Shown here in pieces: positions 1-44,911 of a DNA stretch of 50,831 bases. Source of the DNA: a virus; the UHGV virus genome UHGV-0144957; one strand, 5' to 3'. The position numbers and the translations under genes are program-made. Position 1 is the stretch's first letter. Every line of letters starts with the position of its first letter. The notes under the pieces were generated by a model, which ran no database searches, was not told where the DNA came from, and was given only the letters and a program-made list of their open reading frames with translations.

Positions 1-156
1 AGAACCAAAGGATAGAATTTTACCTGCGGCATCCAGCAGGTCGGCACCTCGCAGGTAGGCACCCCGAAGGTTGGCCCTTTCACCACCTTCTTCATTTTTC
101 AGCCATTTTGCATGACGCTGTAAAATTTCTATTTCTTTTTTCGTGAGTTCGCGCAT
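1..156 (-). CDS. pentapeptide-repeat protein (5' part only; gene continues beyond window start)
   Basis: Minus-strand ORF starting ATG at 154-156 after the RBS GAGGTGG. The translation MRELTKKEIEILQRHAKWLKNEEGGERANLRGAYLRGADLLDAAGKILSFGS shows A(N/D)LxG pentapeptide repeats. It is below the track length cut-off because it is truncated by the window edge. Confidence 0.45.
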   Translation of the reverse strand, partial: MRELTKKEIEILQRHAKWLKNEEGGERANLRGAYLRGADLLDAAGKILSFGS

Positions 157-432
157 AGTTCCACCTCAATATGCTATTAAAAAGGCCCCTTGTCGGGGCC
201 ATGAAATTCAGGTTCATCGGGAATGGTACGGTCTACGCTTTCGCGTTCCGCGTCGTACATGTCGGCTTCCGGCTTCATTGCATGGCCTCCATTCCGTATA
301 AGAGCTGTGGAAGAATGCAGATCCCAAGCATGACCGACATAAAGATGATGACCGCTGCAACCCTAGCCCGGTCAACCTTCTTTCTAGGCCGTTTCAGTGA
401 TACCTTGGCGTGCTTCATGTAAACGTTGGAAA

Positions 433-678
433 TCATGCCGCCACCCCCACCTTTTCAAGAACAGCGTCGATTCCGCCAGCCTCATCGACAAGGAGGCAGT
501 CCGTAATGGGCCATGTTGGGACGAGTTCCCCATTGTCCCATTCCGCCGCCCAGAGGTTCCAGCCGTCCCGTGTAGCCTTGAGGAACGACATCACGGCTGC
601 GGATGAATTGAAAAAGCGTCTGACCGTCCCGCCGTAGAGCGAGTTCCCGGTTTCGATGCAGAAGAATGTTTGAGCCAT
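433..678 (-). CDS. hypothetical protein (81 aa)
   Basis: ORF track. It is preceded by junction repeat B and an RBS (GGAGAAAAATT-ATG), and is followed by two tiny overlapping minus-strand ORFs (ATGA overlaps) in a polycistronic arrangement. Confidence 0.4.
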   Translation of the reverse strand: MAQTFFCIETGNSLYGGTVRRFFNSSAAVMSFLKATRDGWNLWAAEWDNGELVPTWPITDCLLVDEAGGIDAVLEKVGVAA

Positions 679-707
679 AATTTTTCTCCTACGTTGAAGT
701 TTGGATT

Positions 708-762
708 GTTCCCAATCCCGATCAAAAAGCCCCGATTCATCGGGGCTTCTACGGGGCTAGGC
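708..762 (-). repeat. cassette-junction repeat B: GCC-TAG-CCCC stop box + GC hairpin + GGGATTGGGA box
   Basis: Read on the minus strand: GCCTAGCCCCGTAGAAGCCCCGATGAATCGGGGCTTTTTGATCGGGATTGGGAA. The TAG is the stop codon of ORF 757-1038. Confidence 0.6.
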
Positions 763-1038
763 AGGAATGATTTCTTTGATGCAGCAAGCGGGAACGCCAC
801 AACAGCTGATGTTAGCTTCCTTCCTATCAAAATAGGCAACGGTCACTACCCAACCACCTTTTTCAAACCCCAACACAACACCTCGAACGCCTTCCGTGTC
901 CACCACTTCATCGCCACGTTTTAATGAAGTGATTTTGTGAATCCAAGAAAGGCATTCTTTTTCTGATTCAAACTTTGTGGTTTCCGATTTTTCTTGCAAT
1001 TTTTGCAGCATTGATTCCAGAAATTCCTTTTCATTCAT
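757..1038 (-). CDS. hypothetical protein (94 aa; start moved to MNEKEF...)
   Basis: The first 36 codons of track ORF 757..1146 translate junction repeat A. An internal ATG at 1036-1038 follows the RBS AAAGGAGTG. The gene ends with ...IIPA encoded by ATT CCT GCC TAG. Confidence 0.5.
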   Translation of the reverse strand: MNEKEFLESMLQKLQEKSETTKFESEKECLSWIHKITSLKRGDEVVDTEGVRGVVLGFEKGGWVVTVAYFDRKEANISCCGVPACCIKEIIPA

Positions 1039-1068
1039 TTCAGCACTCCTTTTTTTTCGAGATTGATT

Positions 1069-1124
1069 TATCCCAATCCCAATGAAAAAGCCCGGTTGTT
1101 TCGGGCTTTTCGATGGGGCTAGGC
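1069..1124 (-). repeat. cassette-junction repeat A
   Basis: Minus strand: GCCTAGCCCCATCGAAAAGCCCGAAACAACCGGGCTTTTTCATTGGGATTGGGATAAATC. It has a terminator-like hairpin with a T-run. The TAG is the stop codon of ORF 1119-1343. Confidence 0.6.
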
Positions 1125-1343
1125 TCCATGCTTTTTTATGTAGCAATCTCTACATAAATACGGAGAATTGTAGGTTATCGCGATGTTCGATTCATCAGTA
1201 TACTGTACAGGATTTGGTTCTTTGCATCCGCATTCTTCGCATCTTCCGGCATAGTGCCGCGGCTTGCTGTACTTTTTCAGCAAGCGTTGCTGCTTTTGCT
1301 GTTCACGAAAAATACGCCGCTGCATTCTTTCCATTGCGTTCAT
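1119..1343 (-). CDS. small zinc-ribbon-like protein (74 aa)
   Basis: ORF track. The translation has two CxxC pairs (CEECGC...CRDC) and ends ...KKHGA* with GCC TAG inside junction repeat A. Confidence 0.5.
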   Translation of the reverse strand: MNAMERMQRRIFREQQKQQRLLKKYSKPRHYAGRCEECGCKEPNPVQYTDESNIAITYNSPYLCRDCYIKKHGA

Positions 1344-1349
1344 TATCTA

Positions 1350-1372
1350 TCCTTTCCGGTTTGGTTTTTCGA
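1350..1372 (-). repeat. cassette-junction repeat D (stop-box half only)
   Basis: GCCTAGCCCCATCGAAAAACC. It lacks the hairpin and the GGGATTGGG box and is followed directly by RBS GGAAAGGATAGATA-ATG of ORF 1119-1343. The TAG is the stop of ORF 1378-1656. Confidence 0.5.
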
Positions 1373-1377
1373 TGGGG

Positions 1378-1656
1378 CTAGGCGGGAAGTAAATTTACTT
1401 CTTTTACAGGCATCCAAGGGCAGTCGCTATCTATGTAGTACCTGCGCCCTGAGCAGTAGAGGCCCTCGTTGTCTGCCCGCTCCATAACCTTCGTTATAGT
1501 CATGCCTTCAAAAATACAGCCGTAATCATTTATATATGTTACCTTATCGCCAACTTTGAATTTCAGTTCTTTGCCATTTTCAGGGGGAAATGGCTTTATT
1601 TCATCATGCTCTTTAATTAAACGCGCTATCGCTTCGTGATGACTGATACATTCCAT
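1378..1656 (-). CDS. hypothetical protein (92 aa)
   Basis: ORF track. RBS GAGGGACTACTC-ATG. It ends ...NLLPA* with GCC TAG in junction repeat D. Confidence 0.5.
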   Translation of the reverse strand: MECISHHEAIARLIKEHDEIKPFPPENGKELKFKVGDKVTYINDYGCIFEGMTITKVMERADNEGLYCSGRRYYIDSDCPWMPVKEVNLLPA

Positions 1657-1818
1657 GAGTAGTCCCTCTATCGGAATTCAATAAATCAAGGTTATTCAAT
1701 TCCTTTCTCATTTCTCTGCCCCGGCTTGCTTCTTCCGCCGGGGGCTCAGGCTTGCCGCTGGTGTCCAGCTTCGGGCCTTCATCGCGCTGCTTGTCAAAGA
1801 ACCGTGCGTCGCTATGAG

Positions 1819-2046
1819 CTACCAAGCCCTGTACAGCGTCGCCGGAAAGTCGATTCCGGGGCGCACGCCGAAATATGCGGGCGTCCATTCGGCATCGTCA
1901 TCCCAAGGTTCAGCCTGAGCCTCTTCTTCGCCGGGAAAGTCGTTGATGTACTGGCGGGCATCTTCGAGGCAGTCGAGATGTTCGATTTCGATTGCTCCGG
2001 TTGATGTCACTGTCAGAACTGTGCAGGGCGTAGAAAAATCGGTCAT
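1819..2046 (-). CDS. acidic hypothetical protein (75 aa)
   Basis: ORF track. RBS AAAAGGAGAACAGCC-ATG lies immediately downstream of junction repeat C. The product is rich in Asp, Glu and Trp. Confidence 0.45.
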   Translation of the reverse strand: MTDFSTPCTVLTVTSTGAIEIEHLDCLEDARQYINDFPGEEEAQAEPWDDDAEWTPAYFGVRPGIDFPATLYRAW

Positions 2047-2069
2047 GGCTGTTCTCCTTTTCGGGCTTG

Positions 2070-2123
2070 AATCCCAATCCCGGTTGCTACCCCGAAGAAT
2101 CGGGGCAGGGGCCGGGGCTAGGC
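2070..2123 (-). repeat. cassette-junction repeat C
   Basis: Minus strand: GCCTAGCCCCGGCCCCTGCCCCGATTCTTCGGGGTAGCAACCGGGATTGGGATTCAAG. The TAG is the stop of ORF 2118-2363. Confidence 0.6.
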
Positions 2124-2363
2124 GGCAATAAAGAAACGGCTGGGCAAGTCCATAAGTTCGAGTTCTTCACAGTCGATCCAGCGTTCAAAGGCTTCCGCAT
2201 CCCTCTTCTCCAGTTCGTCCATGATCCAGCCGCGAACCATCATTTCTTCCAGCAGATTTTCCCTGCTCGTGCAGTTTGTGGCCTCGAACATCTCGCAAAG
2301 TTGAGCCGTCGAGCGATTGGCGATAATGGCGCGGGCGATATTTTCCTTTCTCTGAGCGTTCAT
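2118..2363 (-). CDS. hypothetical protein (81 aa)
   Basis: ORF track. Strong RBS AAAGGAG 7 nt before the ATG. It ends ...FFIAA* with GCC TAG in junction repeat C. Confidence 0.5.
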   Translation of the reverse strand: MNAQRKENIARAIIANRSTAQLCEMFEATNCTSRENLLEEMMVRGWIMDELEKRDAEAFERWIDCEELELMDLPSRFFIAA

Positions 2364-2406
2364 TCTGTTTTCTCCTTTGGGGGTTCGTCCCCCTTTCGTT
2401 AAAAAC

Positions 2407-2436
2407 AGTATAGGTAATTTTTACCTCTTTTGTCAA
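2407..2436 (-). promoter_or_regulatory. sigma70-like promoter TTGACA-N18-TATACT with 15-bp palindromic operator AGGTAATTTTTACCT (2412-2426) in the spacer
   Basis: Minus-strand read: TTGACAAAAGAGGTAAAAATTACCTATACTG. A 5'-UTR hairpin GGGGGACGAACCCCC and RBS follow. Confidence 0.5.
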
Positions 2437-2527
2437 TATTTATTTAGCAAAAAAATTACCTAAAATTTTAAAATAAAAAAGGCCAGCATTTTGCCAGCCT
2501 TTTTGATATGAGCTTTCAGGAGATGAA

Positions 2528-2872
2528 CTATTTAATAGCCGCTAACCTAGCTTCTTCCTGTACTCGTTCAGCGTATTTAATCGCTTGGTCAAAAACCTTT
2601 TTCCACGGCAGGCCCACAGCCTCGCATAAGTTCAGGATGTCAGTGCCCCGCAGTTGTTGGGGCTTTCTGTTCTCACCTGCTCCTTGTCCTTTACGTATAG
2701 ACTGAACCTTACGCCTTGCATCTGCCACGTGAGGGAACGCCAACTTACCGAGCGAAGATTCGGTCATGTTACGTGAAGACCGCTCTTCCTCGATCTGGCT
2801 TCTGACGGATTCTTCAAAGGCCGCCATACCTATTTCGTTGAGCATACGAAATTCTCCTTTTCCCCTCATCAT
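2528..2872 (-). CDS. hypothetical protein (114 aa; start moved to MMRGKG...)
   Basis: Track ORF 2528..3196 is far too long. The upstream part runs through a second operator palindrome (AGGTAACTTTTACCT, 2922-2936) and a TTGACT box. An internal ATGATG at 2872 follows the RBS AAAGGAG. Confidence 0.4.
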   Translation of the reverse strand: MMRGKGEFRMLNEIGMAAFEESVRSQIEEERSSRNMTESSLGKLAFPHVADARRKVQSIRKGQGAGENRKPQQLRGTDILNLCEAVGLPWKKVFDQAIKYAERVQEEARLAAIK

Positions 2873-3663
2873 AGCAAAAATAACTCCTTTCTGAATTGCG
2901 TGATTTTTTTGCTTGACTGTGAGGTAACTTTTACCTAAAACGAAGTCAAGGCCACCCGGCGAGAACGGCCCCAGCGTATCCGTAAATACCCCACCGCCGC
3001 CGGGTGCGCCTTGCTGATAGCGGCCTTTCCCCTCCGGTGTAGTGGGGAACGCGAGTCGTCTTGCGAAGTAGACGACGGGGAATGTCTGGACGGTATTCAG
3101 ACGGTGGCGGACTTCCCTTGATTCAAAATCCCCCGAAGCCACGAAGCGAGTGTCGGGGTGTCCAGAGACGAAAGTGGAGAAGGGACAATCTCGCAAGACG
3201 GCGCATCAGCCGGAAAGCTCCAAGGCCACAGCATGATGCCTGCGTGTGGCTGCCGAAGCGATAGGGACGGCTCCATACCTGAACCTGTCGAGGCAATGTC
3301 CTGCCCCCGTGTGACAGCGGGTAAGGGCGAGACTTGCCTTTGCTCCTGAGACTCACCACCCTGAACTCAGGGAAAGTCAAAATGCCTTTCTACCTTGCTT
3401 AGTTTTATGTGTAGTTTATGAGCAATTTATGGGATTTTATGAGTTTTAATAAAATTAATATTTCCCATATGATACACTCATTTTATAGTCCGAATAAAAC
3501 CATTTTAATAATCGCTCTTTGACAACCAGCCCCGACGAACCCGCATCCTACGCCATGCCCGGACGTGAACAACGCCGCCTGCCGAAGGATGAACAGGGGG
3601 AGGGATTGAGGACAGAATCCTCTCGCGCTTGGAAGGCAGTTTAGACCGGGGCGCGAAACCTCT

Positions 3664-4098
3664 TCACCAAAACAGAGGTGATGTTCCGGCAGGATAGAAG
3701 CAGAATAGTCGTGGAAAGCATTCCCTGACCATTTTTACAGCCGTATCATCTGGAACATAATTGCAGATAGCAAAGGTTGATTCCGGTTGCCTGTCTGCGT
3801 ATTTTTTGATCCATTGTTGAATGCTCATGACTGCATGGGTTGTATTGGGACACCTAAAACGTTTCATCCCGACGGTATCAACGCCGATATAACGTTTATG
3901 GTTTCGGAAAAACCAGCACTGTGCAGCAAGGTAACAACCAAAATCAATAATAGTGAAATATGGGGGAATAATCTTTGAAATGGCCTCATATTCTTCAATA
4001 AACCCCGCAAAATCACTATCCAATTCGCATCTGTTTTGTGAAAGGATAGATGCAACATCTCTACTTGGGAATTTCCTGTAGAGCGTTTGTGGCTTCAA
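3664..4098 (-). CDS. hypothetical protein (144 aa) on an AT-rich island
   Basis: ORF track. The local composition is markedly AT-richer than its surroundings. I recognise no family for this product. Confidence 0.4.
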   Translation of the reverse strand: MKPQTLYRKFPSRDVASILSQNRCELDSDFAGFIEEYEAISKIIPPYFTIIDFGCYLAAQCWFFRNHKRYIGVDTVGMKRFRCPNTTHAVMSIQQWIKKYADRQPESTFAICNYVPDDTAVKMVRECFPRLFCFYPAGTSPLFW

Positions 4099-4119
4099 TT
4101 TAACCCCCTTTTCATGAGG

Positions 4120-4893
4120 TCAGGCTGCCTTACGGTTCTTTCCGATGTACCTGTTGACGAAATAGACCTGACCTTTTCCGGTGACTTTCGTTGTGAGCGT
4201 GATGCGGACGGAACCGTCAGGATTATTGACGGTACGCTCTTTCAGCTCGAACAGGCCCATTTCCAAGGCCCGCTGTGTCGGGCAATTCCGGCGCTCTCCG
4301 AACTTGATCAGGAATCCATCATTGCGGAGGCGCTCGAAAAGTCGGTTCTGGCCGATGTTCACGCCGTTTTGTTTGAGCAGGGCCGCAAGCTGGCCCACAA
4401 GGATGGAAGACTCCGATGCTGATACTGAATCGGCGAAGAGCTCCTTGGGCTTCATCCGCTGCACATCCTCCTCAAGTTCCACCGTTCGGTTCTTCAAACG
4501 TTCGATTGTTTCCTGCGCGACCAGCACGGCGCGGGCCATGATTGTTTCCGGGGTGTCGTCAGCTTTCGTCAGCATGTAGCCGCCAGTCTTGCGAAGAGAA
4601 GGAATGACCTCTTCGCAAACCCAATCCTGAAATTCTATCGCGGTGGGAAGGTTTGACCGCATGACAAGGCGGTATACGTCGCTTTCCGGGATGATTTTCG
4701 GAGATGGCACCGACGGTGAAACACCCATATTGGAATCATTGATTTTTTTGCAGTGCCTTTGAATAGCGTCTGCCGGATCGGCGTAGCCAAGCGCAACGGC
4801 AACATCCCTTGCCACAAACCACGGCTCGCCGTTGCGCATGACAATGCGAACCTTGCCGAACTCCGCCTTCTCGAAAATCTGCAATTCGTTCAT
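4120..4893 (-). CDS. phage antirepressor, Bro-N domain + KilA-C-like C-terminus
   Basis: The N-terminus NELQIFEKAEFGKVRIVMRNGEPWFVARDVAVALGYADPADAIQRHCKKINDS is a typical Bro-N domain. The C-terminal half resembles phage antirepressor KilA-C. Confidence 0.8.
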   Translation of the reverse strand: MNELQIFEKAEFGKVRIVMRNGEPWFVARDVAVALGYADPADAIQRHCKKINDSNMGVSPSVPSPKIIPESDVYRLVMRSNLPTAIEFQDWVCEEVIPSLRKTGGYMLTKADDTPETIMARAVLVAQETIERLKNRTVELEEDVQRMKPKELFADSVSASESSILVGQLAALLKQNGVNIGQNRLFERLRNDGFLIKFGERRNCPTQRALEMGLFELKERTVNNPDGSVRITLTTKVTGKGQVYFVNRYIGKNRKAA

Positions 4894-5077
4894 TCATCAC
4901 TTCCTTTGCTGTGGTCAAAAAGCACCCGGCGAGGCCAATCCCCGCCGGGGCGCGCTCCCCATGCGGCACATCTAAACGCATGGTTCGGCGCAACGCGCAT
5001 TGTCGCTGCGCCTTTCATGCGGGGCGGTGAATTGTCGAAAAGTCAACTGACCGCCCGTAATTTAGATATTTCGCTTT

Positions 5078-5233
5078 TTATTCTTCCCTTTTCTTCAACA
5101 AAGGCCAGAGCATAACAAACACGCCGGATACAAAAAACAGGTCACTGACTACAGACATGAGCATGTTCGTAAAGTCGATGCCCACGGCACACAGTCCACA
5201 AGCAATTGCTCCAGCAACGCGCCAGTTAAACAT
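5078..5233 (-). CDS. small hydrophobic protein (51 aa, 2 predicted TM helices)
   Basis: ATG at 5231-5233 overlaps the TerB-like stop (ATGTTTAA coupling). The product is MFNWRVAGAIACGLCAVGIDF...VMLWPLLKKREE. No clear SD sequence. Confidence 0.3.
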   Translation of the reverse strand: MFNWRVAGAIACGLCAVGIDFTNMLMSVVSDLFFVSGVFVMLWPLLKKREE

Positions 5234-5678
5234 TTTCGAGCCCGTAATCACGCAGGTTGATGCCAAGCATAGAGGCAACTTCCTTGAGTACCTTAACCTC
5301 TTCGGGCTCAATTTCGCCGTCAGATTCGGCGATAGTCACCATGACATTGAAGCATAAAAGCTTTTCGTCAGGGTTGGCCTTGAGGTCTTCGATTTCCTTC
5401 ATGGCCTTCTGGCGGCCAATACGGAAACCGGTTTCAAACTGCATTCTGAACCGGTTGATAGTTTCACTGATCTCGCTTCCGAAGTGTTGCAGTTCAGGCA
5501 GCGCATTGATGGTCTTGTCGAGCTTGGCAAGTTCCGCGTCTTCGCATTCACCGTCAGCGTAGGCGACCAAAAGAGCGCCGCCGACGATGGCTTGCATGAG
5601 GTCGCGGTTTTCAACCTTGGCAAGTTCTGCTTTGCCTTCCTGAACCTTTTTGCCGAACATCTTACTAAAGAATCCCAT
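5226..5678 (-). CDS. TerB-like (tellurite-resistance TerB family) protein
   Basis: Two acidic DG-E helix-repeat motifs, LLVAYADGECEDAEL and MVTIAESDGEIEPEEVKVLKEV, are typical of the TerB fold. Recognition is by eye. Confidence 0.5.
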   Translation of the reverse strand: MGFFSKMFGKKVQEGKAELAKVENRDLMQAIVGGALLVAYADGECEDAELAKLDKTINALPELQHFGSEISETINRFRMQFETGFRIGRQKAMKEIEDLKANPDEKLLCFNVMVTIAESDGEIEPEEVKVLKEVASMLGINLRDYGLENV

Positions 5679-5840
5679 TTAATTCGCCCTTATGTTTGAG
5701 TTTTACGCTGCTATGGTCGGTCAACAGCTACCTTGCGCCCTTTCGGGGTACGTCATTCCTCATGACGCCTTTTCTCGCACCATACCCCCGAAGGGCACCT
5801 TGTCCTTTGCCTTCTGAATCGGAACGCCGTTCTGTGTTGA

Positions 5841-5926
5841 GGGAAGGAAAGGGATTTGAACCCTTGGAGGAGCTTATCCCTCTACGGTTTTCACCGCTGC
5901 AATCGGCCTCTCTGCCATCCTTCCTT
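5841..5926 (-). tRNA. tRNA-like element, type II (long extra arm), no canonical 7-nt anticodon loop
   Basis: Minus-strand read: GGAAGGATGGCAGAGAGGCCGATTGCAGCGGTGAAAACCGTAGAGGGATAAGCTCCTCCAAGGGTTCAAATCCCTTTCCTTCCC. The acceptor stem is a perfect 7 bp (GGAAGGA/TCCTTCC). The T-arm is perfect (AAGGG-TTCAAAT-CCCTT). A D-arm is present. The arm at the anticodon position folds as GCGGT-GAAA-ACCGT with a 4-nt loop. The 3' CCA is not encoded. Confidence 0.45.
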
Positions 5927-6002
5927 TGGTGGGAATGCCGGGATTTGAACCCGAAACCCGCAGATTATGAGTCTGACGCTCTGCCCATTGAGCTACATTC
6001 CC
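5927..6002 (-). tRNA. tRNA-Met (anticodon CAT), CCA encoded
   Basis: Minus-strand read: GGGAATGTAGCTCAATGGGCAGAGCGTCAGACTCATAATCTGCGGGTTTCGGGTTCAAATCCCGGCATTCCCACCA. Cloverleaf with a 7-bp acceptor stem, D stem GCTC/GAGC, anticodon loop CTCATAA and T loop TTCAAAT. It could equally be a tRNA-Ile(LAU)-type. Confidence 0.75.
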
Positions 6003-6295
6003 TAGTCTCTGAACCTCACCAACTCCATTTTTAGCCTCGTTCGTGCGCTCTACTTGCCTGTAAGCGTTCGATTGCTCCCTACCGCTGAGAATTGGCTTCC
6101 TCCGCCCGACTCCAGCTTTAAGCGGGCCGTTGCCGCGCCATGTTCGCCTTCCCCGGTCGTCGTGGGAAAATAGTCTCTAAAAAGAAACTTTATGTCAATA
6201 GTTTTTCGCATAAAAGATATTTAAACGACGTTTAGAATTTTCTTTTATGAGACTGAAAAGGCGTCAACATTGCTAACCAATTGGACAAAGGGCAT

Positions 6296-6323
6296 AAAAA
6301 AAGCCCCTCATAGTGAGGGGCAG
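6296..6323 (-). terminator. rho-independent terminator downstream of the cI-like gene
   Basis: Minus-strand hairpin GCCCCTCACTATGAGGGGC followed by TTTTTTT. Confidence 0.5.
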
Positions 6324-6400
6324 GAAATGGTTATGGCAGAACCAACAGATTTATATCACTTGTTTTATAAAGTTAATAATTACTATGTGTTATCGTTGAA

Positions 6401-7030
6401 TTATATCACTCTCCCGAACCAACGAACCCGGCCATAAACACGAAAGTTTTCAAGATCCGTACCTTCTACAGCTACGTCTACAAAGTCGCGATTTTCCGAG
6501 CGCAGGAGCCAGCCGCGCGGAGTCCTCTGAACACGTTTAACAAGGAGCTCCTCCCCAAAACCTACAAGAAAGATTTCTCCATCCTTCAAGTCTTTTGTGG
6601 ATTGATCAACGAGAATGGTGTCTTTGTGACGGATAAGGGGTTCCATGCTGTGTCCGAGGACATCCATCATGACAGAATCCTTAGAATGAATGCCCACTCG
6701 ACAAAGAAAATCGTCCCGAAATGCGTACATCCCTAGAACATCATCCGAGGTGACAAGCGAAGAACCTGCTCCCGCTTGTGCTGAAACCTTGGGGATGAGT
6801 GTAAAGCCCTCCAGTTTTTCATCCGGCGGAGTAATCCGAAAGCCTAGGCGATCCAACCATTCAATAAGAGCATCGGCCTTTGGTACGCTTGCGCCAGATA
6901 AGAATTTGTAAAATTTTGATTTTTCTGTGTCAGGGTCAACACCAGCCAGTCGCATCAGGGTCGCCTTGTTTCCGCCCCGCCTCTCGATAAGCTGGTTCAA
7001 TTGGTTAAGAATCTTATCGTATTTCTTCAT
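6401..7030 (-). CDS. cI/LexA-like repressor, S24 peptidase family
   Basis: N-terminal HTH region. The C-terminal domain carries the Ser (GHSMEP) and Lys (LLVKR) catalytic-dyad motifs of S24 autoproteases. It is divergent from a Cro-like gene. Confidence 0.85.
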   Translation of the reverse strand: MKKYDKILNQLNQLIERRGGNKATLMRLAGVDPDTEKSKFYKFLSGASVPKADALIEWLDRLGFRITPPDEKLEGFTLIPKVSAQAGAGSSLVTSDDVLGMYAFRDDFLCRVGIHSKDSVMMDVLGHSMEPLIRHKDTILVDQSTKDLKDGEIFLVGFGEELLVKRVQRTPRGWLLRSENRDFVDVAVEGTDLENFRVYGRVRWFGRVI

Positions 7031-43849: not shown

Positions 43850-44911
43850 TTACTGGTTTTCAGTAAGCCCTTTTTTTGTACATTCATTTTCGCTATGCGT
43901 GATTTTATGCGTGATGTCTTCAAAAATGCCAGCAGCTTCCCTGTCGACACCAAGGTCATGCAGATAGATCTCTGTAGTGCGGATGTTCATGTGTCCAAGC
44001 ACCTTCTGCGCCCGGCGCGGGTCTTTGAAGTGGGTAGCCATGAAGTGGCGTAGGCTGTGGGCCGCAAAGAACGGTATACCCGCCTTCTCGCAAAGGCGTT
44101 TCATAAGATACTTGATGCGCGGCGTGGTGCGGGGGTAGGGGAGGCCAGTTCCGGGGGCTTCAAAAACGAAACGCTCATTTTCGCGCAGCGCATAAAGCCG
44201 GAACAGTACACTATATAAGGTAGGACTCATGGCGATGGTGCGCGATTCCCGGTTCCCTCCCCGGCGTTTGCTTGTCCATAACCGGACGGTTCGATTTTCC
44301 AGATCCACATCTTCCCACGCCATTTCCCGGATTTCAGAAATGCGCCCCGCTGTGTGAAGAAGACAGATCAAAAAATCCCGCTCGAAACCAGTAGCGCAAG
44401 CCATGAGCTTGGCAATGTCCCCTTCCGGGGGGATGTACTTTACTGACTGTACCGTTGCGAAAGGTTCCGTCTGCCGAGCAACATTGACCGGAACGTATCC
44501 CTCTCGTGCGGCCCATGAGTAGAGTGCTGATAACTCGATACGGTACTTGTTCGCGGATTTTGCGCTCACGGCTTCCTTGGCCGCTTCGAGGAAGGCTTCA
44601 AGATCGTTTTTTGTGATGGTGGAGAATTCGGTTTTAGGGCCGATGAATTTGTTCAGCTTTCTGAGGACGCTTTTCTTATAGATAAGAGTGTTCTTCTTGC
44701 ATCGTCCTTCGCGTTTTTGCAGATAGAGCGCCGTGACCTCATACAAGGCCAAGCGTTTGGGCATAGTCACGGAGTCCTTGGCGGTCGATTCCCACTTGAG
44801 CGCCTCCAGCTTGGTCAAAAATCCGCCCCGGTACGCGATTCTTTGCCCTCCTTCGAATACTTCCGCCGCGTATCGCATACCATTCTTCGTCTTGTATTTC
44901 CTGATGGACAT
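43850..44911 (-). CDS. int: tyrosine-type site-specific integrase
   Basis: N-terminal arm-binding-type segment SIRKYKTKNGMRYAAEVFEGG. The C-terminal catalytic domain has HSLRHFMATH ... and HMNIRTTEIYLHD (R..H..R..Y). Confidence 0.9.
   Translation of the reverse strand: MSIRKYKTKNGMRYAAEVFEGGQRIAYRGGFLTKLEALKWESTAKDSVTMPKRLALYEVTALYLQKREGRCKKNTLIYKKSVLRKLNKFIGPKTEFSTITKNDLEAFLEAAKEAVSAKSANKYRIELSALYSWAAREGYVPVNVARQTEPFATVQSVKYIPPEGDIAKLMACATGFERDFLICLLHTAGRISEIREMAWEDVDLENRTVRLWTSKRRGGNRESRTIAMSPTLYSVLFRLYALRENERFVFEAPGTGLPYPRTTPRIKYLMKRLCEKAGIPFFAAHSLRHFMATHFKDPRRAQKVLGHMNIRTTEIYLHDLGVDREAAGIFEDITHKITHSENECTKKGLTENQ
43893..43916 (+). repeat. arm-type site pair, right of the att core (CTATGCGTGATT + TTATGCGTGATG)
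   Basis: Direct repeat of 43663-43686, inside the 3' end of the integrase gene region. Confidence 0.55.

Follow-up and report, generated by a model that had tools for sequence, protein, structure and literature searches.

Small genes in the leftward early operon of the phage analysed here are separated by a conserved junction element of 50-54 nt, hereafter J, which stands between many different genes in related phages and at whose edges sequence similarity begins and ends. On balance, J is probably a cis-acting intercistronic RNA hairpin whose conserved feet double as recombination linkers. It is best read as a new variant of the 'regulatory linker' idea of the PeSL type, PeSLs being the promoter-early stem-loops of T4-type phages (Arbiol et al. 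2010, PMC2839356; Comeau et al. 2014, PMC4122927).

Four junctions in a leftward early operon

The window, that is, the whole 50.8-kb stretch of DNA that was analysed (UHGV virus genome UHGV-0144957), carries the following features, given in the direction of transcription.

2407..2436, minus strand: near-consensus sigma-70 promoter (TTGACA-18-TATACT; scan, 11/12 hexamer matches)
2118..2363, minus strand: gene A, 81 aa, ends ...FFIAA-TAG, with GCC-TAG from the stop box
2072..2123, minus strand: junction J2118, hairpin type c, 52 nt (sequence, folding)
1819..2046, minus strand: gene B, 75 aa, mosaic F1 family
1677..1808, minus strand: module M, second conserved intergenic unit, about 110-130 nt
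1378..1656, minus strand: gene D, 92 aa, ends ...LLPA-TAG in the stop box
1344..1383, minus strand: truncated junction J1378 (sequence, folding, relatives)
1119..1343, minus strand: gene E, 74 aa, Cys-rich, ends ...KKHGA-TAG in the stop box
1071..1124, minus strand: junction J1119, hairpin type e, 54 nt (sequence, folding)
757..1038, minus strand: gene F, 93 aa, ends ...EIIPA-TAG in the stop box
710..762, minus strand: junction J757, hairpin type b, 53 nt (sequence, folding)
433..678, minus strand: gene G, 81 aa, no box; its TGA stop overlaps the start codon (ATG) of gene H
275..436, minus strand: gene H, 53 aa, hydrophobic, no box

The 10-mer GCCTAGCCCC (5' box, or stop box) occurs exactly four times (753-762, 1115-1124, 1374-1383 and 2114-2123), always on the minus strand, against a chance expectation of 0.16; none of 100 shuffles reached four copies. 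The 3' box, GGGATTGGGA, has exactly three copies (710-719, 1071-1080 and 2072-2081), again all on the minus strand, where 0.20 would be expected by chance and three were reached in one of 100 shuffles. No further exact copy of either box was found in the whole window, and all copies lie inside 710-2123, clustered within 1.4 kb. As an earlier note on this DNA had described, the ORFs 2363..2118, 1656..1378, 1343..1119 and 1038..757 each end in an Ala codon (GCC) and TAG within GCCTAGCCCC. That note had also taken the four genes to be consecutive, which they are not: gene B intervenes and ends TGG-TAG without a box, and it is followed by a different conserved unit, module M, which takes the place of a J junction. 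Module M has its own hairpin (1719-1744), of which a compensated variant exists in two relatives (L003 and L120), and it adjoins different genes among relatives. The F1 family, to which gene B belongs, has the common C-terminal tail FGV(L/R)PGIDFPATLxRAW. Gene A gave no match to Pfam.

Complete elements of 52-54 nt are present at three junctions, in the order GCCTAGCCCC, GC-rich hairpin, (C/T)GGGATTGGGA, Shine-Dalgarno (SD) sequence and next ATG. In J2118, the 5' box (2123-2114) and the 3' box (2081-2072) flank an inner stem (2108-2100 with 2095-2087) in a two-tier hairpin with a minimum free energy (MFE) of -34.7 kcal/mol, and a leader of 25 nt runs from the 3' box to the ATG at 2046. J1119 consists of a 5' box (1124-1115), an inner stem (1111-1102 with 1094-1085) followed by a U-tract, a 3' box (1080-1071) and a 32-nt leader up to the ATG at 1038. 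The corresponding parts of J757 are the 5' box at 762-753, an inner stem (750-740 with 735-725) that has a U-tract, the 3' box at 719-710 and a 31-nt leader of the CAATCC type up to the ATG at 678. Thus, the succession of hairpin, box and leader reported earlier for three junctions stands, but the description of the hairpins as terminator-like does not hold throughout, since J2118 has no U-tract. The fourth site, J1378, is a decayed junction copy. What remains of it is the stop box (1383-1374) with the initial 8 nt of a spacer of type e. This copy shares GCCTAGCCCCATCGAAAA with the 1119-type junction and has lost the 3' arm of the hairpin and the GGGATTGGGA box; folding revealed no structure (z = 0.56). 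The gene family that precedes it has a complete junction in L003 and L120.

The promoter at 2436-2407 drives the leftward early operon that contains the array. Its spacer holds a 15-bp palindrome, AGGTAATTTTTACCT, at 2412-2426; the same AGGTAA-N3-TTACCT arrangement is present at 2922-2936, and from its sequence and position the palindrome looks like an operator. A mycobacteriophage stoperator was rejected as an identity for the junctions, the palindrome being unrelated to either box. Erf, SSB, Gp157 and a tyrosine recombinase are encoded in the operon of the array, and the only tyrosine recombinase of the window lies at 43850..44911. The variable slot ends with gene H, which is conserved, and in many relatives a J junction is found directly upstream of this gene.

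J folds as a two-tier hairpin in the sense transcript

In the sense transcript, J folds as a two-tier hairpin of about 20 bp in which the boxes pair with each other, partly through G.U pairs, around a variable inner hairpin. The outer pairing of GCCUAGCCCC(R) with (Y)GGGAUUGGGA comprises 5 bp, a C.A mismatch and a further 4-5 bp, with three G.U pairs; within these feet are a small internal loop, which is asymmetric, and an inner stem of 9-11 bp, whose sequence varies freely while its pairing is kept. All 17 distinct cores of the first set had this MFE fold (-24 to -35 kcal/mol, 18-20 pairs), and box variants found later reached 22 predicted pairs. The sense strand folded better than the antisense strand in every case, by 1.6-10 kcal/mol, and the outer 5-bp stem formed on the sense strand only. 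Among 25 distinct cores, 98.9% of cells were paired, against 82.7% in shuffles; the inner helix showed changes on both sides in 10 of 11 pairs, its 100% pairing being partly circular because its register was set by the individual fold of each sequence. The columns of the outer helix were not fitted; this helix was 97.8% paired and exchanges G-C for A-U at the position adjoining the boxes, the one position with changes on both sides. Since the sequences are closely related, covariation power is low. Box variants were mostly compatible with pairing (C2U, C8U, C9U, U4C, G6A, G1U opposite A, C7U opposite A and G7'A); four rare ones break a pair. In partition-function folds in native context (80 nt on each side), the mean probability was 0.52 for the outer stem and 0.68 for the middle stem. 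The downstream SD was predicted to be unpaired only 31% of the time, which gives no support to a role for J as an insulator holding the ribosome site open.

This architecture suggests that J may serve as an intercistronic processing or stability site, by analogy with the RNase III sites between T7 early genes, or alternatively as a protective 3' hairpin. Like the T7 sites of the R1.1 type, J is intercistronic in a phage early polycistronic transcript, has a duplex of about two turns that is interrupted asymmetrically by an internal loop, and conserves its lower-stem sequence among copies. It differs in that its stop codon sits in the lower stem, and its cleavage is suggested by analogy. The RNase III sites of T7 are not known to act as points of gene shuffling. 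RNase III substrates span about two helical turns, and internal loops can limit cleavage to one strand and leave a protective 3' hairpin (PMC1540722); in every J core, 18-22 pairs are predicted, together with a 1x1 mismatch and an internal loop that is asymmetric.

The 3' box is conserved in 158 of 164 true copies, in 22 of 22 copies in a scan anchored on the leader and in 24 of 24 in a scan anchored on the 5' half. This is far more than pairing needs and points to an additional sequence-specific reader. One could therefore suppose that GGGATTGGGA is primarily read, as DNA or RNA, by a phage or host protein (an antiterminator, a translational repressor or a nuclease), its pairing with the stop box being secondary. 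The box persists in one relative where the 5' box has been lost (L122), and in the commonest leader class it forms part of a 7-5-7 palindrome, GGATTGG-N5-CCAATCC, that resembles a dimer site. It also resembles the SAS box of mycobacteriophages, GGGATAGGAGCCC. In Cluster K mycobacteriophages, SAS is a 13-bp box that contains the SD sequence and lies 3-8 bp upstream of the start codon; like GGGATTGGGA it is asymmetric, G-rich and found in one orientation ahead of non-structural genes, and an imperfect inverted repeat with a variable spacer (ESAS) precedes about half of the copies (PMC3203893). However, the J 3' box lies 25-35 nt upstream of the ATG, has a separate SD and finds its pairing partner in the box at the stop codon of the preceding gene. 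Furthermore, no candidate reader was found, the palindrome partner is absent from the other leader classes, the operator-like palindrome in the promoter of the operon has no relation to the box, and protein binding as the primary function leaves the co-occurrence of the 5' box and the pair-compatible variation unexplained. We consider it unlikely as the whole explanation of J, although binding of a protein to the 3' box is compatible with the hairpin-and-linker reading that we prefer.

J is specific to one lineage of Bilophila phages

J was recovered in about 144 non-redundant contexts, from Bilophila prophages and human-gut phage contigs. The composite motif was present only in 31 IMG/VR contigs and Bilophila genome records; other taxa gave single chance-level matches that lack the architecture. 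In a scan of species-representative genomes, the B. wadsworthia ATCC 49260 genome had the motif only on a 72-kb scaffold that is listed as a prophage in IMG/VR and holds two J copies. The element was absent from the 77 distant Erf-encoding phages searched, and Rfam covariance models run against the junctions gave no match at the gathering threshold or at E<=1. In all contexts, J is co-oriented with the genes, in a repressor-controlled leftward early operon, and in contiguous contigs Erf follows on the same strand, 0.5-1.5 kb downstream of J. As a cis element between small accessory genes, J is restricted to a single lineage of temperate Bilophila phages of the lambdoid type.

Genes and hairpins reassort at the boxes

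The earlier note had regarded each gene as a swappable cassette delimited by conserved boundaries, and comparison with relatives bears this out. Across the 144 contexts, members of 29 protein families adjoin the same 50-54 nt element, in 48 different upstream/downstream adjacencies; one upstream family has nine downstream partners and one downstream family has nine upstream partners. A single upstream gene may be combined with up to three hairpin types, and the same is true of a single downstream unit, while the exact runs common to different hairpin types are only 4-12 nt long. The upstream gene, the inner hairpin type and the downstream leader with its gene therefore reassort independently, which places the exchange points in the 10-11 nt boxes or at their edges. 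In accordance with this, blastn similarity to the window begins and ends at box edges, with HSP ends clustered at 761/762, 1071, 1124/1125, 1374/1375 and 2123-2126. The J-delimited arrays gain one junction per added gene and range from a single junction between two genes, of the form 1 <a> 2, to the three-and-a-half junctions of the window. The stop codon lies inside the box in 12 of 20 upstream families, and unrelated proteins all end in Ala-TAG because the 5' foot contains both the stop and the sense codon before it (NCC, usually Ala).

In evolutionary terms, the conserved feet would provide short homologies for the insertion, deletion and replacement of single-gene cassettes. Such exchange would take place among co-infecting or resident relatives by a homologous or microhomology-mediated route, plausibly aided by the Erf-type annealing protein of the phage or by template switching at the hairpin. 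Boxes of 10-11 nt are short for RecA-type recombination.

The same breakpoints could be produced by an integron-like site, folded as single-stranded DNA, at whose boxes a phage recombinase would move single-gene cassettes. J does have a loosely attC-like appearance, with imperfectly pairing conserved feet, an unpaired spacer, a variable terminal hairpin and a strand-asymmetric G:T bias, and in attC sites, too, the stop codon often falls within the site. As in integrons, a single promoter precedes an array of promoterless small genes, here ORFans; the 3' box hardly varies, exchange occurs within boxes that are short for general recombination, and the operon has both a tyrosine recombinase and Erf. 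However, the integrase at 43850..44911 is a generic phage integrase and not IntI (52 bits against TIGR02249, cutoff 265; 22.5 bits against NF011946, cutoff 435). attC R boxes follow RYYYAAC / GTTRRRY with a conserved AAC/GTT core (PMC5027507), a triplet that is absent from GCCTAGCCCC and GGGATTGGGA on either strand. Moreover, J is shorter than the attC range (50-54 nt versus 57-141 bp), its better-folding strand is the coding (top) strand and not the bottom strand as in attC, and its hairpin reassorts with both upstream and downstream genes, whereas attC stays with the upstream ORF. No single recombination module is common to all J phages, and close Erf relatives were found on only three contigs. 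An integron-like site is accordingly quite improbable.

A dedicated cassette platform independent of integrons would be a bolder variant, and we give it just as small a chance. Here, the hairpin and its invariant feet would be recognised by a putative phage annealing protein, nuclease or recombinase, an activity that would capture, excise and reorder single accessory genes in the early operon, with the site giving each captured gene its last codon and stop codon.

Transcription signals at the junctions

The idea, also from the earlier note, that GGGATTGGGA re-initiates transcription after each terminator, as a promoter or a site for a regulator, is unsupported. Such a cassette of terminator and promoter would resemble PeSLs, which occupy a similar position between stop codon and SD and mediate shuffling (PMC2839356). 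Among the six hairpin types (a-f), types b and e do look like intrinsic terminators, with a GC stem followed by 5-6 U, and the TTGGGA within the 3' box matches the -35 consensus at 4/6 positions. However, types b and e account for only 27 of the 144 contexts, including J757 and J1119, whereas types a, c, d and f, which have no U-tract, account for 116, including J2118, so that there is usually no terminator to recover from. A sigma-70 scan of positions 1-6500 detected the site at 2436-2407 only and none in the window junctions, the five leader classes have no common -10-like hexamer at 16-18 nt, and the predicted transcript fold pairs the 3' box with the stop box. We therefore regard stopping and restarting of transcription at J as very unlikely. 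A sequence-specific factor may bind the 3' box. If J is, as we prefer, an RNA hairpin with linker feet, its b and e variants could also work as intrinsic attenuators.

The likeness to PeSLs extends further. Both are short, conserved and intergenic, occupy the stretch between the stop codon of one gene and the SD of the next, contain a stable GC-rich stem-loop with G-T pairs, and lie among small ORFan early genes of hyperplastic regions at points of insertion, deletion or replacement between related phages. A further hallmark of PeSLs is that adjacent copies can recombine to form mini-circles. PeSLs, however, are defined by a strong sigma-70 promoter, which J does not have. J conserves two mutually pairing 10-nt feet, including the stop codon, while the interior of its stem-loop is variable, and it belongs to temperate lambdoid-type phages of an anaerobic Desulfovibrionaceae host, in contrast to the lytic T4-like myoviruses that carry PeSLs.

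Repetition by local duplication was a further possibility raised at the outset, to be recognised by the same genes in the same order in related phages; their gene content and order differ. REP elements are imperfect palindromes downstream of stop codons, and REP/BIME sequences, which are intercistronic and lie just past the stop, can stabilise upstream mRNA. Although the window copies lie within 1.4 kb of each other, a functionless duplication, or a host-wide REP-like repeat caught in a prophage by chance, is hardly credible, given that J stands between different genes in many phages, is confined in B. wadsworthia to the prophage scaffold and is not dispersed in the host chromosome, and shows strict co-orientation with genes and pair-compatible substitutions. 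The linker ('boundary') sequences of lambdoid phages are likewise short and conserved, lie at gene boundaries and permit module exchange; compared with them, J has far sharper limits and is repeated more often. As identities for J, an integron attC, a REP element and a plain terminator/promoter unit were all rejected.

Significance for phage mosaicism

Whether mosaicism at gene boundaries arises through random illegitimate joins followed by selection or through conserved linkers is an old question, and the J locus exemplifies the conserved-linker route in nature with unusual clarity. Its 10-nt feet are observable exchange points, seen in dozens of independent gene combinations in human-gut metagenomes, and the availability of a culturable host, Bilophila wadsworthia ATCC 49260, makes both the recombination pathway and the RNA function directly testable. 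The locus also illustrates that unrelated proteins can be made to share their C-terminal residue and stop codon when a cis element extends into the end of the ORF. Finally, J is a marker of a variable accessory-gene slot, in which anti-defence or host-takeover genes are likely to be found.

A conserved box ends four genes of a minus-strand array

In the window, the 5' box GCCTAGCCCC (the stop box) occurs in four exact copies on the minus strand (753-762, 1115-1124, 1374-1383 and 2114-2123) and the 3' box GGGATTGGGA in three (710-719, 1071-1080 and 2072-2081), whereas dinucleotide-preserving shuffles predict 0.16 and 0.20 exact matches per window, respectively. No further exact copies of the boxes were found within the 50.8-kb window. 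An earlier note had proposed that the stop box closes four small ORFs with Ala-TAG, and this is borne out: GCC (Ala) and TAG within the box form the end of the minus-strand ORFs 2363..2118, 1656..1378, 1343..1119 and 1038..757. However, these genes are not consecutive as claimed, since gene B (2046..1819) intervenes; it ends without a box and is followed by a different conserved module (module M). Genes 678..433 and 436..275 overlap via ATGA. The promoter and junctions of the array are as follows:

2436 to 2407, minus strand: sigma-70 promoter, near-consensus TTGACA-18-TATACT, immediately before the first array gene; the spacer contains a 15-bp palindrome
2072-2123, minus strand: junction J2118, complete; 25 nt from 3' box to next ATG
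1344-1383, minus strand: junction J1378, stop box and 8 nt spacer identical to J1119; remainder lost, no predicted fold
1071-1124, minus strand: junction J1119, complete; 32 nt from 3' box to next ATG
710-762, minus strand: junction J757, complete; 31 nt from 3' box to next ATG

In the three complete junctions, the order is stop box, GC-rich hairpin, (C/T)GGGATTGGGA, Shine-Dalgarno-bearing leader and ATG. The layout and the distance of ∼25-35 nt to the ATG described earlier therefore stand, but the hairpin is followed by the U-tract of a terminator in only two of the three. The family of the gene ending at the truncated J1378 is followed by a complete junction in two relatives.

The element recurs between varying genes

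The composite pattern was found in 31 viral contigs, with at most three copies per contig. Three additional ascertainments, anchored on the leader, on the stop box and hairpin or on a protein motif, did not require both boxes. The exact 3' box was present in 22 of 22 loci recovered with the commonest downstream leader and in 24 of 24 recovered with the stop box plus the 5' arm of the commonest hairpin. The protein motif of the most conserved array gene gave 80 metagenomic loci, all from human gut, with the same element; the metagenome scan with the F1 family, to which gene B belongs, used a six-sequence alignment. After removal of redundancy by sequence context, 144 junction contexts were retained. 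Their neighbours belong to 29 protein families, 20 on the upstream and 14 on the downstream side, which combine into 48 different adjacencies; a single upstream family was joined to nine downstream families, and a single downstream family to nine upstream ones. Moreover, array maps indicate that the gene-B family and a conserved small hydrophobic gene bracket a variable slot holding zero to several extra genes, with one more junction for each extra gene in junction-delimited arrays. The same element thus lies between varying genes, and what the earlier note had set against each other, a cassette boundary or a local duplication, is decided for the former.

In blastn comparisons, similarity of the relatives to the window both starts and ends at the box edges (761/762, 1071, 1124/1125, 1374/1375 and 2123-2126). 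The inner hairpin falls into six sequence types (a-f) that share exact runs of only 4-12 nt, mostly 4-8. Since one upstream gene, and likewise one downstream leader with its gene, can occur with up to three hairpin types, the upstream gene, the hairpin and the downstream unit reassort independently, which requires crossovers within the two boxes or at their margins. The identity available to such crossovers is 11 nt at each box, adjacent paired base included. Exchange might proceed through annealing by the Erf-type protein of the phage, through template switching as replication stalls at the hairpin foot, or through a dedicated enzyme; that the junction is the site of a dedicated cassette-exchange activity seems to us improbable.

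Within the gene-B family, which is itself a mosaic, a single C-terminal tail, FGV(L/R)PGIDFPATL(H/C/Y)RAW, is combined with three unrelated N-terminal halves and directly precedes the junction (window 1819-1880, the 3' end of gene B; homologues in the loci L005-L030 and L123-L202). This means either that the linker reaches ∼60 nt into the coding frame or that the tail represents a functional peptide module.

Several apparent further copies were discarded. Near-matches in the locus L105 are ordinary terminators, and a 17-copy variant, GCCCAACGCC...GGCATTGGGA, whose outer stem seemed to have changed on both sides in a compensatory way, proved to be a false positive: it lies antisense within the CDS of the small downstream gene. 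In 77 Erf-anchored loci of distant phages (42-61% identity), searched for structure-conserving divergent homologues, neither the element nor an analogous repeated junction was detected.

The two boxes pair in the sense strand

All 17 distinct cores of the first set, each folded alone, adopt one predicted structure. Positions C2-G6 of the 5' box pair with U5'-G9' of the 3' box (C-G, C-G, U.G, A-U, G.U) to form an outer stem; next to it stands a C.A mismatch, after which CCC and the following base pair with GGG and the base preceding the 3' box. A small asymmetric internal loop then leads to an inner stem of 9-11 bp with a loop of 3-7 nt. These cores and the box variants found later have 18-22 predicted pairs in total. 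In every case, the antisense strand loses the outer stem, because three of the nine outer pairs are G.U, and folds worse by 1.6-10 kcal/mol; the structure is therefore specific to the sense transcript or sense DNA strand. When the native flanks are included, the outer stem is predicted with a probability of only ∼0.5.

Because MAFFT misaligned the inner stems, we used a structure-anchored alignment of 25 distinct cores, in which 98.9% of the cells were paired, compared with 82.7% in column shuffles and ∼63% when the partner was slid by one column. In the outer helix, whose columns are fixed by the boxes, 97.8% were paired; one position alternates between G-C and A-U, and four vary only in a wobble-compatible manner. 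In the inner helix, both sides change at 10 of 11 positions, a figure that mainly reflects the constant presence of a hairpin, since the register was set by the fold of each individual sequence.

Of the 164 true copies in the enlarged set, 142 have the consensus 5' box, and pairing is kept or improved by most variants of this box (C2U, C8U, C9U, U4C, G6A, G1U opposite A and C7U opposite A). The 3' box is consensus in 158 of the 164; of its four rare variants, two disrupt a pair, one strengthens a pair and one has a mixed effect. Two changes of the TAG are informative. In TAA, the stop is retained and G.U becomes A-U; in CAG, the stop is gone, U.G becomes C-G and the upstream gene is closed by a TAA of its own that lies nine bases before. 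It thus seems that the helix is the primary constraint and that the stop codon is used when available. Twelve of the 20 upstream families terminate within the box. The last sense codon is NCC, as its second and third bases pair with the GG of the 3' box, which explains the common C-terminal Ala and the rare Ser, Thr and Val.

The 3' box is conserved beyond the needs of pairing. Moreover, it outlasts the loss of the 5' box in one contig, and in the commonest leader class it forms a palindrome, GGATTGG-N5-CCAATCC, predicted to compete with the outer stem. Together, these features make a putative sequence-specific reader of GGGAUUGGGA or GGGATTGGGA likely.

Possible functions of the junction

Lying between cistrons of a phage early transcript, the junction contains a sense-strand-specific helix of about two turns that is interrupted by an internal mismatch and by an asymmetric internal loop. 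As modelled, it fits what has been published on bacterial RNase III substrates, where cleavage is confined to one strand by internal loops and a protective 3' hairpin is left (PMC1540722), and it recalls the intercistronic sites of the T7 early genes. By analogy, an RNA processing or stability element is plausible and is the reading we favour. Some role at the RNA level is probable, while the attribution to RNase III specifically is tentative. The b and e variants, as folded, could possibly act in attenuation in addition.

Other readings fared less well. A general terminator would require a U-tract, which only types b and e possess; they make up 27 of the 144 contexts and two of the three complete junctions of the window. 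An insulator keeping the next ribosome site open is at odds with a predicted in-context SD accessibility of only 0.31. Readthrough fusion or gene-60-like bypassing is not systematic, the combined length of junction and leader being divisible by 3 in only about half the cases worked out by hand, and amber suppression of the TAG is not supported by the tRNA-like gene at 5841-5924, which has no CUA anticodon. The suggestion in the earlier note that the 3' box re-initiates transcription as a promoter was not upheld, as the junctions lack a sigma-70-like site and the five leader classes have no -10-like element in common. For a trans-acting antisense partner, box complements elsewhere in the window amount to chance-level one-mismatch matches. 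An attC site is contradicted by the generic integrase (52 bits against a cutoff of 265), the absence of the AAC/GTT core, a length below the attC range, the better folding of the wrong strand and a hairpin untied from the upstream ORF. Finally, REP elements are dismissed because copies are confined to prophage and stoperators because the boxes are unrelated to the operator-like palindrome, and Rfam gave no match to the junctions at gathering or E<=1.

Phage and host context

The window is the genome of a temperate, lambdoid-style phage, encoding an S24 (CI/LexA-type) repressor, a BRO-N/KilAC antirepressor, TerB, Erf, SSB, Gp157 and a tyrosine integrase; the long plus-strand block is presumably the virion module. 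In related contiguous contigs, Erf is encoded 0.5-1.5 kb downstream of the junctions and in the same orientation. The window is thus permuted, and its array makes up the promoter-proximal portion of a PL-like early operon. No Pfam match was obtained for the array proteins, and their PHROG matches were weak, nearly all to families of unknown function, giving no functional clue.

The host clade is Bilophila. Among species-representative genomes, the composite motif with full architecture was found only in B. wadsworthia ATCC 49260, on scaffold NZ_JNJP01000012, which has two junctions and is listed as prophage by IMG/VR, and in one Bilophila MAG. Five matches in other taxa, each single and without hairpin, SD or gene context, fit chance expectation for a 20-base pattern in 596 Gb.

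Other conserved elements

The window appears to be a circularly permuted contig cut within the early operon. At its start (1-165, minus strand), a truncated ORF contains tandem 15-nt repeats with five-residue periodicity (...ANLRGAYLRGADL...) and would, from its sequence, seem to encode a pentapeptide-repeat protein; positions 5-75 align at several offsets with the relatives (edge-gene repeat loci L006, L039 and L040). The 15-bp palindrome AGGTAA-N3-TTACCT has two copies, one in the early-promoter spacer (2412-2426) and one just upstream of an unannotated 119-aa gene, 2887..2528 (2922-2936), which look like operators of the immunity system.

Module M (window 1677-1808, minus strand; ∼110-130 nt) starts with CGCACGGTTCTTTGACAAKCAGCGCGA, carries a hairpin at 1719-1744 and recurs in the related loci L001, L002, L003, L004, L013 (two copies), L027, L031, L120 and L121, with differing upstream and downstream genes. 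In L003 and L120, ATCGGCC/GGCCGAT, with full compensation, takes the place of the hairpin CCCCGGC/GCCGGGG. The module is probably not coding, since a 1-nt indel among copies argues against this, and may be a second junction type or a small RNA.

A GC-rich stretch of ∼450 nt without a convincing ORF (∼2945-3400, especially 3086-3396, minus strand) is 90-94% conserved in the related loci L002, L026, L028, L031 and L037, with a terminator-like hairpin at 2973-2947 and an AT-rich promoter-like region at 3480-3508. It has no Rfam match and a fold z-score of only -1.85, and could be an unannotated phage RNA or regulatory region. The tRNA-like gene at 5841-5924 (minus strand) adjoins tRNA-Met (5927-6002), scores 38.9 bits with the Rfam tRNA model, has a long variable arm and is ∼79% identical to phage tRNA-Ser genes. 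Its anticodon loop is shortened to 4 nt (GAAA) in the Rfam tRNA-model alignment or 6 nt according to ARAGORN, which could not assign the anticodon; the gene could be a tRNA that has decayed or a tRNA-like element.

Two distant, unrelated Erf-encoding phages have repeats of their own at gene- or sub-gene-length intervals: the 12-mer GTAAAAATCACG occurs four times in L046 (1126, 2488, 3073 and 4494), and the 12-mer TTAAAAATACCA five times in L047 (74-734, ∼160-nt spacing). Both could be further examples of intergenic or iteron-like repeats specific to a lineage.

Relation to known systems

The SAS/ESAS of Cluster K mycobacteriophages, of unknown function, resemble the junction in having a G-rich asymmetric box preceded by an inverted repeat, but are located at the start codon (PMC3203893). 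Among published concepts, PeSL of T4-type phages comes closest: motifs conserved between genes that combine a promoter with a stem-loop, lie amid ORFan early genes and mediate modular shuffling (PMC2839356, PMC4122927). In contrast to PeSL, the junction lacks the defining promoter, consists of two mutually pairing invariant feet with an embedded stop codon and a free interior, and belongs to a temperate phage type with a host of another phylum. Like PeSL, it works as a recombination linker, and its role as a cassette boundary is well supported.
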